Shown here: positions 3,371 to 9,359 of the stretch, in pieces
How positions within the stretch are numbered: position 1 is the first letter of the stretch
Layout: every line of letters starts with the position of its first letter
From: an uncultured archaeon
GTDB lineage: Archaea; Iainarchaeota; Iainarchaeia; Iainarchaeales; 0-14-0-20-30-16
Reading direction: 5' to 3'
NCBI GenBank assembly: GCA_964565125.1
Contig: CAZMCX010000027.1
Coordinates: 1-9,515 of the forward strand
Length of the DNA: 9,515 nucleotides
Made by a program: the position numbers and the translations under genes
The notes under the pieces: model-generated
Seen by the model: the letters and a program-made list of their open reading frames with translations, nothing else
Told to the model about the DNA's origin: nothing
Database searches by the model: none

Positions 3371-3398
3371 AAAAAAAGAGAGTAGACATCTCTACTCT
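3371..3398 (-). terminator. Hairpin plus T7 run ending the 311-aa/73-aa transcription unit
   Basis: The minus strand reads AGAGTAGA-GATG-TCTACTCT, an 8-bp perfect stem at 3379-3398, followed by C and T7 (A7 on the plus strand, 3371-3377). The 5' arm contains the TAG stop of the 73-aa ORF. Confidence 0.55.
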
Positions 3399-3613
3399 AT
3401 AAGCTCACCCAATTCTACTGTGTCATCTTGATCATTGGCGATAAATATATCATCCACCATAGACAAAGCTTCGGCCTCATTGTAATCCGCCTGTCCGCTT
3501 AGAGTATCTGATGTATCTTTTGTTGTGCTATCTTTACTTAAAGTAACTCCAAGCACCACTCCAATTACTACTAACACTATTAGCACTAATAATATTGCAA
3601 GCCAAGCTTTCAT
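3392..3613 (-). CDS. Small (73 aa) signal-anchor protein with an acidic C-terminal ectodomain, unknown function
   Basis: The N-terminal helix is strongly hydrophobic (AWLAILLVLIVLVVIGVVLGVTL). The tail is D/E-rich. Its ATG (3611-3613) overlaps the TGA (3610-3612) of the upstream gene as ATGA, which suggests translational coupling. A terminator hairpin sits at its stop codon. Confidence 0.6.
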   Translation of the reverse strand: MKAWLAILLVLIVLVVIGVVLGVTLSKDSTTKDTSDTLSGQADYNEAEALSMVDDIFIANDQDDTVELGELIE

Positions 3614-4545
3614 TCGGAATCACCTTCTACATTCAAATCTACTGAAACAGCTACTTCTGCATTTGAATCTTCGCTGTTGCCATCTTCTTCTCCAAACCAG
3701 TCATCTAATTTATCTTCTACTTTATTTTTTATTTTATCTTTTATTTTACCTTTAAGTTCTTGCTTTTTTTCTGAAATTTTCTTTTTTAATTCTTGTTTTA
3801 TTTCTTCTTTATTTTCTTCTATTTTCTGCTTTATTTCTGCTTTCTTTTCAGCAACCTTTGCTTTTACTTCTTTCTTTACTTTTCCATTGTAAGTTTGGGT
3901 TTTAACTTTTACTTCTTTTATTTTCCACATTAATTCTTTCTTTAATTCTTTTTGAAGACCGCCAAACATCTTTGCAATCTCGCTTCTCATTTCACCATAT
4001 GTTGCAGTACCCGCAGCAATTTTATCTAAAAGGCTTTGATTTTTTACTTCTAAATCTTCAAACAACTTTGCAGCCACTTCATAATTATATTTATTTTTGT
4101 TTTCTTTTATTTCTGCATCCAATTTTTCTACTGATGCTTTTTCCATTGCTTTATATTCATCCTTAATTGTGTTCTTTTCATCTGAGTTCAAATCTTTTGC
4201 GTAAGTCTTAAACTCTTGTGCTAAATCCATTGCTTTTTCTTTGTATGCAAGGAAGTCTTTAACCAAAAATTCTGGCTCTTTTCCAGTTACATCATACCCT
4301 GATACTTCCTCTTTTAGAGCTTTATATTCTGCAATTACTGTTGTTGCATTTTCATCCAAATATGGCAAAGCTAATTCACCAATCATAATATGTTTTTCCA
4401 TTGCTTTTTCCAGTTGTAACATTCTTACTTCTGCACCATTTGTATTTGTAAAATTAGTATATATTTTATCTTCATTAAATGCAAATGATGGTATTGCTAA
4501 TGCTACTACAAAAACCATTGCCAATAACAAATTCTTATAGTTCAT
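3610..4545 (-). CDS. Secreted 311-aa Lys/Glu-rich helical protein with an acidic C-terminal tail, unknown function
   Basis: The N-terminus is signal-peptide-like (MNYKNLLLAMVFVVALAIPSFAF). The body is long and helical, and its C-terminal third is low-complexity K/E (KKEVKAKVAEKKAEIKQKIEENKEEIKQELKKKISEKKQELKGKIKDKIKNKVEDK). It ends in an acidic tail (DDWFGEEDGNSEDSNAE...EGDSE). SD-like GGGGGTG (reverse complement of 4553-4559) lies 7 nt upstream of the ATG. Confidence 0.8.
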   Translation of the reverse strand: MNYKNLLLAMVFVVALAIPSFAFNEDKIYTNFTNTNGAEVRMLQLEKAMEKHIMIGELALPYLDENATTVIAEYKALKEEVSGYDVTGKEPEFLVKDFLAYKEKAMDLAQEFKTYAKDLNSDEKNTIKDEYKAMEKASVEKLDAEIKENKNKYNYEVAAKLFEDLEVKNQSLLDKIAAGTATYGEMRSEIAKMFGGLQKELKKELMWKIKEVKVKTQTYNGKVKKEVKAKVAEKKAEIKQKIEENKEEIKQELKKKISEKKQELKGKIKDKIKNKVEDKLDDWFGEEDGNSEDSNAEVAVSVDLNVEGDSE

Positions 4546-4573
4546 AATCTAACACCCCCATGATATACCTGCT

Positions 4574-4625
4574 GCGGAACTAAATATATACCTTTTCCGG
4601 AATTATCCGGAACAAGGCGGAACTA
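4574..4625. promoter_or_regulatory. Array of four same-orientation SCGGAAY motifs bracketing the TATA-like element (candidate operator)
   Basis: CGGAA begins at 4575, 4598, 4608 and 4618, so the last three are exactly 10 bp apart. The outermost copies are identical 9-mers, GCGGAACTA, at 4574-4582 and 4617-4625. One middle copy is embedded in the palindrome TTCCGGAA (4595-4602). Confidence 0.5.
4581..4598 (-). promoter_or_regulatory. Archaeal-type BRE/TATA-like promoter element for the 311-aa gene
   Basis: The minus strand reads GGAAAAGG-TATATATTTA, a purine-rich BRE-like stretch followed by a TATA-like stretch. Its 3' end is 35 nt upstream of the ATG at 4545. That spacing would place a transcription start just upstream of the GGGGGTG SD. 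Confidence 0.45.
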
Positions 4626-4662
4626 GAGGGACTTATAGGCCTAAGACAGCATTAGTTAGGTT

Positions 4663-4704
4663 ACAAAGAGGCAATACATAAAGGCAAATTAAACAAAGGC
4701 AAAA
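4663..4704. repeat. Three direct repeats AAAG(A)GGCAA(A/T) spaced 13-15 bp apart
   Basis: The copies are ACAAAGAGGCAAT (4663-4675), TAAAGGCAAAT (4679-4689) and ACAAAGGCAAAA (4693-4704). GGCAA starts at 4670, 4683 and 4698. Confidence 0.5.
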
Positions 4705-4732
4705 GGTCACAGGTTTATTTTACCCTACTTAT

Positions 4733-5437
4733 CTAGTCTAATAGAACAATAACATTAGACAACCCTTTACTTATTTTCTTAATAAGCCCTTTTTTTTCTA
4801 AACTTAAAAGGTTCCGTGATAATGAGGATTTAGGCAAGTTAAGTTCTTGCAGGATTTTATTCTGAGTTATTTGGCCTTTATTTTTCTTTACTAGATCCAA
4901 GATTTGTTTTTCCCTATCTGTTAAAAAAACCTCTTGCTTTACTTCTTTTTGCACAGACTTAGAAAAATATTTCTTATATCCAATATAACCCACGATGGAC
5001 AAAATAACTAATGCTCCAACAAGATATGCCCACCAATATGATTTCAATAAGGGATTTAAAAAAGAGTATTGCAATTTCAGGTTTAATTTCGAGTTCTCTC
5101 CAAATCCATTAATTATTATTTTATCCTCTTGTTTTATTTTCTGGAAACCAGAGATGTTTAGATAATTTATTTCAGTATTTTTTGGCATCCTTAATTCAAA
5201 AACATAGGACGAAAATATTTCATTAGAATCAAAATTAAAAACCCAAAGCCCATTATTTTTTGAGGTCAAATTTGAATTAAGCCCACTTTGTAAATCGGGG
5301 TAATCAGAATATCCACTTATCAAAACGTCTCCATTAGTTTGTACATCAAACACAACATCAGCATAATAAGAGAAAGAAATTCCCGCCAATAACAAAACAA
5401 ACAATGCTAATAGCCCAGTTTTATTCATAAAAATCAT
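4733..5437 (-). CDS. Membrane-tethered transcriptional regulator: signal/TM helix, ~110-aa ectodomain, TM helix, C-terminal winged helix-turn-helix
   Basis: The N-terminus has a hydrophobic segment (GLLALFVLLLAGISFSYYA). The middle domain looks beta-rich. A second TM helix, WWAYLVGALVILSIVGYIGY, covers residues 134-153. The cytoplasmic tail is LTDREKQILDLVKKNKGQITQNKILQELNLPKSSLSRNLLSLEKKGLIKKISKG, which looks MarR/TrmB-like wHTH. This architecture recalls the archaeal membrane-associated regulators I remember as COG2512. The start is either ATG 5437, which overlaps the upstream TGA as ATGA, or ATG 5428. Confidence 0.75.
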   Translation of the reverse strand: MIFMNKTGLLALFVLLLAGISFSYYADVVFDVQTNGDVLISGYSDYPDLQSGLNSNLTSKNNGLWVFNFDSNEIFSSYVFELRMPKNTEINYLNISGFQKIKQEDKIIINGFGENSKLNLKLQYSFLNPLLKSYWWAYLVGALVILSIVGYIGYKKYFSKSVQKEVKQEVFLTDREKQILDLVKKNKGQITQNKILQELNLPKSSLSRNLLSLEKKGLIKKISKGLSNVIVLLD

Positions 5438-6573
5438 TTTTGTTTTTCTAATATAGAATCTATTTCTTGCTCTAAAGTTATAAACTTATCATAAATAGAT
5501 TCATACCCTTTCCAACTGTTCTGATAAAGATAATAGTCATTATCTGTTATTACTTGTTTTATGTAGGATACACTTTCAGGCAGATATTCCCCATTTACAT
5601 AATATTCCACATCAAAAGTTGTGGGACCATATTTCATTCTACCCAAATATTGACCGGTTTGTGGTTCAACTAGCTCTGCCAAATCTAATTTGTTCAGATC
5701 TGACAAGTAATTTATTTTTTCTTTGGAAAACGCAATAACACAATGTCCCCCAAAAACATCTGCTTTGTTTGGATCTTTTAATACCCCGCATACAATATTA
5801 GGATAAATATACCCAACTTCAAGATTATGTTTTTTTGCGTTTGCATAATACCAAGAATTTGAATTATCTAAAAAGTAGTTCCCAGAATCAGAAATTACAA
5901 ATGCCTCAATACTTATTTCTTTATCAGAACATTTTTCAAGCAGATAATTTATTTCTGCTTTAAATAAAAGGGAAAAGTCTTCACAATCACCACCTTTGTT
6001 CTCCAAAAATTCATTAATAGAAATAAACTTGTCTGTTTTTCCTAAAGTTGTATCATCTTTGTATTCCAAGTTCATAAATTGTTCGTTCACTAAATTAAGG
6101 CAAGCTTCGGCAATATAACAAGAACCTGATTTTTCAGAATAACATTTAGAATCTAGCTTAGATTTTATTGATTTACTTTTTAAGGTTGCATTTTCTTTAA
6201 ACCAATCCAAAGAACTTTGCACCTCGATCTTGTAGCCATTTAATTCTTCTTTTGCGGAGTAAAGCTTAGAAGTTAGTTCCGCAGAGATATCTAGAGCTTT
6301 GTTGTATTCTAGGTTCAGGCCTTTATATTCTTCTACTAATTCATAGTACTTTGTTTGCAGTTCAGCATATTGTTTAGAAAGTTCTAAGTATTGCCCAGAA
6401 AGTAGGTTATAATCATCTAAAAGAGAACCATACTTAAAATTCAATAATTCATAATCACTAGTTAGCTTGTCATAATCAGATGATTTAACAAGATATAAAG
6501 CCACAACTAAGGCAATTACCAATATAGCAATAGAAAACAGAACAAAAATTATTACTTCAAGATATTTTTTCAT
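5434..6573 (-). CDS. Membrane-anchored extracellular transglutaminase-like / papain-fold cysteine enzyme with an N-terminal Tyr/Leu heptad coiled coil
   Basis: The N-terminal TM anchor is VIIFVLFSIAILVIALVVALYLV. Nine consecutive heptads follow, with Tyr at residues 34, 41, 48, 55, 62, 69, 76, 83 and 90. KGGDCEDFSLLF contains Cys197 (codon 5983-5985). FGGHCVIAF contains His277 (codon 5743-5745). LVEPQTG contains Glu303. This Cys..His..acid order and context matches the GDCEDY / H / D-P-T pattern I recall for transglutaminase-like cysteine proteinases (BTLCP / Transglut_core). Confidence 0.8.
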   Translation of the reverse strand: MKKYLEVIIFVLFSIAILVIALVVALYLVKSSDYDKLTSDYELLNFKYGSLLDDYNLLSGQYLELSKQYAELQTKYYELVEEYKGLNLEYNKALDISAELTSKLYSAKEELNGYKIEVQSSLDWFKENATLKSKSIKSKLDSKCYSEKSGSCYIAEACLNLVNEQFMNLEYKDDTTLGKTDKFISINEFLENKGGDCEDFSLLFKAEINYLLEKCSDKEISIEAFVISDSGNYFLDNSNSWYYANAKKHNLEVGYIYPNIVCGVLKDPNKADVFGGHCVIAFSKEKINYLSDLNKLDLAELVEPQTGQYLGRMKYGPTTFDVEYYVNGEYLPESVSYIKQVITDNDYYLYQNSWKGYESIYDKFITLEQEIDSILEKQK

Positions 6574-9215: not shown

Positions 9216-9359
9216 TGCCAAGGGGGAGACTTGAACTCCCGGCCTCCAGATTTCTCTCTGAAATCTGGTTTGTCTAATCATCGCTCGTAAAACAAGTTCA
9301 TAATTCATAACCACAAATAGTTATGAGTCTGGCGCTCCAACCAACTGAGCTACCTTGGC
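9216..9359 (-). tRNA. Elongator-type tRNA with anticodon CAU (Met, or Ile2 if C34 is modified), interrupted by a 70-nt intron at 37/38; no encoded CCA
   Basis: Hand-folded on the minus strand. The acceptor stem pairs GCCAAGG with CCTTGGC, followed by discriminator A. The D arm is GCTC-AGTTGGTTG-GAGC. The anticodon stem pairs CCAGA with TCTGG, with loop CTCATA|A (CAT at 9323-9325). The variable region is AGGCC. The T arm is GGGAG-TTCAAGT-CTCCC. Exon 1 is 9322-9359, the intron is 9252-9321 and exon 2 is 9216-9251. The boundary is ambiguous by 1 nt because an A flanks both junctions. It lacks the initiator hallmarks (A1:U72, and GGG/CCC in the anticodon stem). Confidence 0.85.
9252..9321 (-). 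other. tRNA intron (70 nt), canonical position, presumably spliced by an archaeal-type endonuclease
   Basis: The sequence is ACTATTTGTGGTTATGAATTATGAACTTGTTTTACGAGCGATGATTAGACAAACCAGATTTCAGAGAGAA. Removing it restores a standard 74-nt cloverleaf. C32-U33-C34 can pair with the GAG near the intron 3' end, flanked by A-rich unpaired bases. This approximates a relaxed bulge-helix-bulge, but I could not draw a perfect 3-4-3 BHB. Confidence 0.7.

Follow-up and report, generated by a model that had tools for sequence, protein, structure and literature searches.

The question raised by this locus is whether a short array of repeated words, placed around a TATA-like element in the intergenic region of an uncultured archaeon, constitutes an operator and, if so, which gene it serves and which protein reads it. 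The window (the whole stretch of 9,515 nucleotides analyzed here) had originally been examined from its letters and open reading frames, and that original prediction described four copies of CGGAA in the same orientation, directly downstream of a gene for a membrane-tethered wHTH protein, as having the geometry of an operator for a multimeric DNA-binding protein. Here we follow up this prediction by comparative genomics, structural modeling of the encoded proteins and comparison with known regulatory systems.

The array and its genomic setting

The gene content of the window is archaeal in type and includes genes for a geranylgeranyl-reductase-like protein and for a protein with an LPG_synthase_TM domain; the intron of a tRNA gene that was missed by ARAGORN (Table 1) supports an archaeal origin. 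The closest named relative of the 234-aa wHTH protein belongs to a Candidatus Iainarchaeum MAG (83% identity), a member of the phylum Iainarchaeota in the DPANN group (kingdom Nanobdellati in the NCBI taxonomy), while an exact-protein look-up of the 234-aa and 311-aa products returned no record of either. Since the host is an archaeon, it is appropriate to read the promoter in terms of TATA and BRE elements. The GC content of the window is ~31%, and that of the intergenic DNA around the array ~30%. The minus strand carries every gene around the array, in the order wHTH gene, 187-bp intergenic region, 311-aa gene and 73-aa ORF. The 379-aa product of the gene preceding the wHTH gene combines a TM segment at its N terminus with a coiled coil, and a GGDCEDF stretch in it resembles, by eye, a transglutaminase-like Cys motif; no significant family was found for it in Pfam and NCBIfam.

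The four CGGAA copies start at positions 4575, 4598, 4608 and 4618 of the plus strand, exactly where they had been placed and with the 10-bp steps that had been claimed for them, and the outer 9-mers of the array (GCGGAACTA) are indeed identical. The TATA-like TATATATTTA (minus strand, 4590-4581) does sit between the first copy and the remaining three. Read on the minus (coding) strand, the module takes the form GTTCCG-N4-GTTCCG-N4-ATTCCG-N8-ATATATTTA-GTTCCG and lies ~35 nt upstream of the 311-aa gene (in full, tagGTTCCGccttGTTCCGgataATTCCGgaaaaggtATATATTTAGTTCCGcagcagGTATATCATGGGGGTGttagattATG); its conserved core is the hexamer GTTCCG, from which site 3 departs in its initial base.

The extended word SCGGAAY occurs 6 times on both strands of the 9515 bp, against 0.90 +/- 0.95 occurrences expected from 200 dinucleotide shuffles, none of which reached 6, and four of the six copies fall in 4574-4623, within 52 bp. 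The array is far from a chance occurrence. CGGAA alone is only mildly enriched (12 occurrences versus 5.9 expected, with 8 of 200 shuffles reaching 12), and the signal must therefore be sought in the cluster and its geometry rather than in the word count.

Table 1. Features of the window around the array, listed along the direction of the minus strand; sites and promoter elements are given as read on that strand.
Feature	Position	Strand	Remarks
Intron-containing tRNA gene	9216-9359	(-)	Rfam, 57.4 bits; intron ~73 nt
379-aa protein gene	5434-6573	(-)	co-oriented, upstream of the wHTH gene; 4-nt overlap with the wHTH gene
Candidate regulator gene, 234-aa single-pass membrane protein	4733-5437	(-)	predicted extracellular beta-sandwich and C-terminal cytoplasmic wHTH
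Intergenic region	4546-4732		187 bp
T-rich spacer	4624-4732	(-)	not part of the module; non-conserved; missing in L003 and L009
Second repeat set, AAAGGCAA x3 (TTGCCTTT on the coding strand)	4662-4703		13-15 bp spacing; just past the wHTH stop codon
Site 1, GTTCCG	4618-4623	(-)	distal upstream; GTTCCG in 5/6 aligned lineages, GTTCCA in L001
Site 2, GTTCCG	4608-4613	(-)	10 bp from site 1; invariant in 6/6 aligned lineages
Site 3, ATTCCG	4598-4603	(-)	10 bp from site 2 and adjoining the BRE-like stretch; TTCCG invariant
BRE-like purine-rich 8 nt, GAAAAGGT	4590-4597	(-)	between site 3 and the TATA box; putative BRE function
TATA box, ATATATTTA	4581-4589	(-)	preceded by GAAAAGGT; conserved octamer 4589-4582
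Site 4, GTTCCG	4575-4580	(-)	23-bp step from site 3; flanked by the TATA box and the predicted start
Predicted initiator block, GTATATCATGG (GTATGTTATGG in relatives)	4558-4568	(-)	conserved as GTATRTYATGG
Shine-Dalgarno-like GGGGGTG	4553-4559	(-)	7 nt before the ATG; GGAGGTG or GGGGGTG in orthologs
Target gene, 311-aa protein	3610-4545	(-)	signal or anchor helix, helical bundle, long helix, acidic tail
Small membrane protein gene, 73 aa	3392-3613	(-)	start overlaps the target stop by 4 nt

Conservation of the array across lineages

The original prediction had proposed an alignment of orthologous intergenic regions, and this comparison reveals a conserved array. Homologs of the wHTH protein and the 311-aa product led to the loci of seven further lineages, and the module is present in all eight independent lineages with a readable flank, including one with a wHTH protein only 35% identical to that of the window. 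The start-to-start spacings of the TTCC cores, which are 10, 10 and 23 bp in the window, are repeated to the base in L001 (wHTH protein 83% identical), L003 (62%), L009/L010 (target protein 78% identical) and L132/L133 (wHTH protein 35% identical, on the 681-kb contig ERZ25039512 contig_99960, of 39% GC), so that the same spacing is found in five lineages. The array reads 20, 10, 10 and 23 bp in L007 (61%), 21, 11, 9 and 23 bp in L008 (35%) and 10 and 23 bp in L006 (53%), where the contig ends inside the array. A further locus, L002 (99%), has an identical array with spacings of 10, 10 and 23 bp, but it represents the same lineage as the window and was left out of the independent count. The orientation of the array is the same at every locus, with the TATA box spanned by a 23-bp step in 8/8 lineages. 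A fifth, more distal site (TTTCCA or GTTCCG) can be seen in L007 (~1152) and L008 (~845), in both cases 20-21 bp upstream of the canonical first site.

In an ungapped alignment of six lineages, the 24 site columns have a pairwise identity of 0.96, compared with 0.77 for the TATA columns and 0.56 for the spacers, and none of 100,000 random sets of 24 columns was as conserved as the site columns. TTCC is invariant in 24/24 sites of this alignment. The base preceding TTCCG in site 3 is an A in the Iainarchaeum clade and a C in L132, and site 4 appears as GTTCCG, GTTCCA or GTTCCT across lineages. By chance alone, the four-site pattern would be expected ~4e-7 times in the 20.7-kb L132 locus. A word repeated in fixed orientation and at fixed spacing among variable spacers is the hallmark of an operator array, and this is the pattern observed here: eight lineages have retained the sites, their orientation and their spacing, whereas the spacers have diverged, in good agreement with the operator-like geometry first proposed. 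Such a pattern is a classical phylogenetic footprint, as left by a sequence-specific DNA reader that works under constrained geometry.

The array as part of the target promoter

The position of the array directly downstream of the wHTH gene, on which the original prediction had laid stress, holds in the window but does not indicate ownership. In L132, a 112-aa gene sits between the wHTH gene and the array, and the array directly precedes a 294-aa gene, the product of which is 25% identical over 201 aa to the 311-aa protein of the window (E 4e-15). As the array stays with the homologous target in spite of this gene insertion, it should be regarded as part of the target's promoter rather than as something belonging to the wHTH gene's 3' end. 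In L003 and L009, moreover, the intergenic region spans 83 bp and contains little beyond the module. The TTGCCTTT x3 repeat of the T-rich spacer shows no conservation in L001 and is missing from L003 and L009; the spacer, including this second repeat set, probably serves as a terminator zone for the upstream operon.

The target protein is modeled with a helical bundle at residues 35-165 (pLDDT about 85), and no meaningful fold-search match and no Pfam or NCBIfam family could be found for this protein. The 73-aa ORF is likely to be co-transcribed with the target gene, given the overlap of their ends, and an ORF of 62-73 aa is found in the same arrangement in L001, L009, L132 and the P0012 contig. 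In L132 this ORF (12083-12280, 65 aa) also overlaps the target stop by 4 nt. No sequence similarity is detectable between the 73-aa and 65-aa products, which share a layout: both have a TM or lipobox-like segment at the N terminus, an acidic polar tail and, at the C terminus, the motif V-(E/D)-(L/I)-G.

Predicted promoter elements

Archaeal BRE/TATA promoters can be recognized by an AT-rich box of ~8 bp, preceded by a purine-rich BRE and conserved at orthologous loci, and these features coincide in the array. The BRE-like stretch has a fixed length of 8 nt in all lineages and is purine-rich in the Iainarchaeum clade, within which the column identity of the TATA box rises to 0.92. TATA-like octamers occupy the same place in the distant lineages L132 (TTTAATAT) and L008 (TTTTAAAC). 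Transcription in archaea usually starts about 23-27 bp downstream of the TATA box and, with the TATA box at 4589-4582, this usual distance would place the start near 4559-4561, within the conserved block GTATRTYATGG. A distance of ~28 nt between the archaeal TATA box and the start has also been described (PMC8553660). The GTATRTYATGG block keeps its position in L007 despite 18 extra nt between block and start codon. The leader that follows from the predicted start would be only ~14 nt long and, numbered from that start, sites 1-3 fall at about -63 to -39, up to one base before the BRE-like 8 nt, and site 4 at about -20 to -16.

In archaea, a factor bound upstream of the BRE usually aids recruitment of TBP or TFB, while a factor bound at or downstream of the TATA box blocks TBP/TFB or RNA polymerase (PMC5512572, PMC4706686). 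Since the promoter analyzed here has sites of both kinds, their positions would be congruent with either sign of regulation. The unit TTCCG-N6-G(T/C)AT(A/G)T can also be discerned in two copies, 23 bp apart, within 4563-4605, the first formed by site 3 and the TATA box and the second by site 4 and the predicted initiator block. The pair is conserved in five lineages of the Iainarchaeum clade and is weaker in L132, and the promoter has the appearance of a site-plus-TATA unit duplicated in tandem.

Distribution of the motif

In the window and in 20.7 kb of L001 and in L003, there is no second TTCCG cluster and no other pair at 10-bp spacing, and no other array was identified in the window, L001, L003 or L132, nor any further array in the ~57 kb of DPANN DNA searched. 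An isolated TTCCR-N5-TTCCR pair is found in L132 (13649-13663), inside the 5' end of ftsZ and on the opposite strand, but a single such pair against 0.35 expected is within chance. As judged from these searches, the motif is not a general feature of promoters or of coding sequences.

Wider searches were less informative. A scan of the genome collection for GTTCCG-N4-GTTCCG-N5-TTCCG was discarded, as the pattern is too loose and was swamped by chance matches; the matches listed came almost entirely from unrelated genomes, mostly high-GC bacterial ones, with no DPANN among them. Patterns derived from the wHTH alignment proved too degenerate for a metagenome scan, which returned only L004 and L005, both of them distant relatives from which the array is absent. 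In viral contigs, the four-site pattern retrieved only unrelated arrays, mostly perfect 10-bp tandem repeats from one phage-contig group. The IMG/VR contigs with tandem arrays (L134, L136, L138, L140-L141, L143-L155 and L158-L160) derive mostly from metagenome 3300045988; they are phage-like, 26-45 kb long, and in their perfect tandem arrays of 10-bp units GATTCCGATT xN is followed by CATTCCTTTT xN. These arrays look like iterons and are unrelated to the archaeal module.

The candidate regulator

The claim that the gene upstream of the array encodes a membrane-tethered wHTH protein is well borne out. Residues 172-232 of the 234-aa product match the Pfam families DUF7343 (50.0 bits, cut-off 27.6) and MarR_2 (34.8 bits, cut-off 27). 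In the AlphaFold2 model, computed from a 64-sequence alignment (pLDDT 92.8), a hydrophobic helix at the N terminus (6-18) is followed by a beta-sandwich (24-126) and then by a TM helix (129-158), which a linker of ~15 residues connects to a compact wHTH (174-232). The initial hydrophobic helix, together with a KK motif after the TM helix, suggests a topology in which the sandwich would face the outside and the wHTH the cytoplasm. No MarR-type dimerisation helices are present in the model. The wHTH fold matches those of ArsR/HlyU, MarR members, AspA and ribosomal S25e. For the whole chain, the best PDB fold matches are ribophorin I/Ost1 of the eukaryotic oligosaccharyltransferase (8b6l_O, 6s7o_E and 6ezn_A), although the match is weak (E 1.6e-3, TM 0.29).

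The family of the 234-aa protein comprises at least 286 clusters (50% identity) at E <= 1e-30. Full-length members occur in Altiarchaeota, Woesearchaeota, Nanoarchaeia and a Thermoplasmatales MAG, and a Pacearchaeota protein gives a partial match only, over 55% of the query. A literature search for DUF7343 found no papers. The recognition helix, with the consensus LPKSS(V/L)SRN, is the most conserved part of the family and holds five of the 12 columns that are invariant among 64 homologs (P202, K203, S207, R208 and N209); a helix reading PKAAVSRNI occurs among its members.

The original prediction had linked this protein to the array by inference. The gene order wHTH, array and target is kept from 99% down to 35% wHTH identity, even across a gene insertion, and the invariant recognition helix parallels the invariant GTTCCG word across the lineages examined. 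Conserved gene order and a near-invariant recognition helix strengthen the proposed link, which we nonetheless still infer rather than observe; as the wHTH and target genes are adjacent, or nearly so, at every locus, synteny cannot prove the pairing of regulator and target. With both motif and helix invariant, L004 offers the one hint of covariation (n=1). This locus encodes a distant and shorter membrane wHTH relative (171 aa) with a different recognition helix, and the promoter downstream of it (987-1099) carries other repeats, of the TTTCAG type, with T(T/C)TGG(C/T)ATTTCAG present twice and TAT(T/A)TCAGTT found at 24-bp spacing across a ATATATAT box. This promoter may represent, as a single case, the same design implemented with a different word.

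Proposed mechanism and alternative explanations

That the array is a sequence-specific operator in the target promoter is, in our judgment, highly probable. The complete reading that we favor, to which we assign a probability of about 0.6, is that this operator is read by the neighboring membrane wHTH protein, acting as a ToxR-like switch. The operator (4575-4623) would be built into the BRE/TATA promoter of an operon (3392-4545) coding for the 311-aa secreted helical protein and the 73-aa membrane protein, and each GTTCCG hexamer would provide one major-groove site for one wHTH monomer. Three of the sites, one helical turn apart, end just upstream of the BRE, and the fourth lies 2-3 bp past the TATA box. 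The candidate reader, encoded just upstream, would hold its cytoplasmic wHTH on a linker of ~15 residues, so that tethered monomers would share the same polarity and approach the DNA from the membrane side. DNA-binding domains that are tethered in parallel and reach the DNA from one side would be well matched to repeats arranged head to tail along a single face of the helix. Cooperative occupancy could then be set by the extracellular or TM parts associating with one another, as in a one-component switch of the ToxR type, and regulated proteolysis releasing the wHTH may be a variant of the same scheme.

How occupancy might translate into transcription is more speculative. Our guess is a dual logic, in which occupied upstream sites would help recruit TBP/TFB and an occupied site 4 would limit entry of RNA polymerase; a speculative alternative is that sites 3 and 4 clamp the TBP-bent TATA box. 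TBP unwinds the TATA box by about one-third of a turn (~100 degrees, close to three bp). The distance of 23 bp corresponds to two turns plus 3 bp, and the 3 bp in excess of 20 might conceivably match this unwinding. Site 4 would then share the face of sites 1-3 only on TBP-bound DNA, which predicts co-occupancy rather than competition. In its broadest form, the hypothesis would be that a large, uncharacterised archaeal family of tethered wHTH regulators with a ribophorin-I-like sandwich reads TATA-bracketing direct repeats, that the geometry is frozen across phylum-level DPANN distances, and that the 23-bp bracket offsets TBP unwinding, with the oligomer and TBP co-occupying the promoter at the membrane. 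We consider this broad form doubtful; if true, joint occupancy by TBP and a membrane-bound oligomer would amount to a form of promoter control that is not known to have been described for archaea.

Among the other explanations, an unlikely one of some substance is that the operator is genuine but read by a different, unlinked transcription factor, with the membrane wHTH protein doing something else. Conservation argues for a sequence-specific reader and is silent on its identity. Furthermore, MarR/ArsR-type wHTH proteins usually bind palindromes as dimers, so that the direct-repeat layout of the array is atypical for proteins of this kind. Against an unlinked reader speak the neighborhood, kept at 35% wHTH identity and across the insertion in L132, the lack of any other DNA-binding gene recurring at the loci, and a recognition helix that is as invariant as the motif. 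Far less probable is the idea that binding of the wHTH protein to the array mainly tethers the chromosome to the membrane, in a centromere-like segregation role as in AspA, or couples transcription to secretion of the target, with no classical on/off function. The membrane anchor and short linker of the modeled DNA binder, the presence of AspA among the wHTH fold matches and the fact that both downstream products are secreted or membrane proteins would be congruent with such a role, but the invariant 23-bp TATA bracket points to the initiation machinery and only one array was seen per locus.

Readings without a dedicated protein fare worse still. G+C-rich pentamers with a 10-bp period in intergenic DNA of such low GC might act as a bendability or archaeal histone-positioning signal shaping promoter accessibility, yet it is the exact word and its polarity that have been selected, rather than composition, as seen in the invariant TTCC amid variable spacers, and the fourth site is out of the 10-bp register; we deem this explanation quite improbable. 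We attach hardly any weight to an RNA element, that is, a leader or small-RNA hairpin formed by TTCCGGAUAAUUCCGGAA. An inverted repeat is present, and the window folds at -27.4 kcal/mol (z = -1.96), but L003 and L007 retain the direct repeats without the palindrome, and the sites lie upstream of the TATA box. We rejected this reading, as the hairpin lacks conservation and has no match in Rfam. A chance cluster of a short word, which the mild enrichment of CGGAA alone might have suggested, is refuted by the comparative data, given that a pattern with so minute a chance expectation in L132 is present in all eight lineages; its probability is close to nil. The reading we retain is thus that of an operator in the target promoter, with the neighboring membrane wHTH protein as its candidate reader.

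Comparison with known systems

By function, the closest systems appear to be the bacterial ToxR-like receptors, to which the archaeal one would be analogous and not homologous. ToxR, TcpP and CadC are one-component proteins with an extracytoplasmic sensor, a single TM helix and a cytoplasmic wHTH, and this three-part layout is also seen in the model of the 234-aa protein. The tox-box of ToxR consists of direct repeats one helical turn apart, TNAAA-N5-TNAAA (PMC8517210), and it shares both properties with the TTCCG-N5-TTCCG of the array. In contrast, the domain order is inverted, the 234-aa protein having an N-terminal sensor and a C-terminal wHTH, and the wHTH of the ToxR-like proteins is of the OmpR type, whereas that of the 234-aa protein is a MarR/ArsR-like DUF7343 domain, with no match to the OmpR-type domain (Trans_reg_C). 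Also unlike the ToxR-like systems, the promoter is an archaeal BRE/TATA promoter with one array site downstream of the TATA box.

Among archaea, ArnR/ArnR1 of Sulfolobus acidocaldarius are membrane-bound, oligomer-forming regulators that bind upstream of the BRE/TATA of surface-structure genes; ArnR has an N-terminal HTH, a cytoplasmic HAMP-like and sensor region and two C-terminal TM helices, and reads boxes in the form of inverted repeats (TCGAC-N5-GTCGA) between -43 and -84 (PMC6396743). The 234-aa protein resembles ArnR in being an archaeal, membrane-bound candidate one-component regulator, and differs from it in its extracellular beta-sandwich, its single TM helix with a signal/anchor helix and its C-terminal wHTH. 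Instead of inverted boxes, moreover, the array presents direct repeats bracketing the TATA box, and the defining traits of ArnR are therefore missing.

EarA, a wHTH activator of Methanococcus and the Thermococcales that recognizes TACATA, binds four 6-bp sites immediately upstream of the BRE (PMC5512572). The array sites upstream of the BRE are likewise several 6-bp sites abutting that element, but EarA is soluble, reads a different word and has no site described past the TATA box, while the candidate proposed here is membrane-bound. TrmBL1 activates from upstream of BRE/TATA and blocks RNA polymerase recruitment from downstream of the TATA box (PMC4706686), and the array promoter has sites in both of these positions. 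TrmBL1, however, is a soluble protein with a sugar-binding domain that binds one palindrome per promoter, TATCAC-N5-GTGATA, from which the array differs. Nor can the 234-aa protein be assigned to the classical MarR regulators, in which dimerisation helices lie on the N- and C-terminal sides of the wHTH and the operator is palindromic, as only a wHTH of ~60 residues follows the TM helix in the model and the sites are direct repeats. On these comparisons, the array system lacks the defining features of the ToxR-like and ArnR/ArnR1 families, and probably those of EarA, and yet would seem to work like them.

Implications for gene regulation in DPANN archaea

The results presented here put forward a previously undescribed candidate regulator-operator cassette, with an unusually rigid TATA-bracketing geometry conserved across deep DPANN divergence. 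Spacing that is exact to the base between lineages with a regulator only 35% identical is rare among cis-regulatory modules. To our knowledge, next to nothing has been learned about how DPANN archaea, which cannot be cultivated on their own, regulate their genes. The locus provides a candidate regulator-operator pair that is ready for testing, with a 70-bp DNA module, four defined sites and a soluble domain of ~75 residues. If the link between the wHTH protein and the array is true, a DNA word would become defined for the widespread DUF7343 membrane-protein family of unknown function, and an archaeal counterpart, with inverted domain order, would join the membrane-bound class of ToxR and CadC. 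The cassette would then also offer a clean system in which to learn how a TATA-bracketing factor works with or against TBP/TFB.
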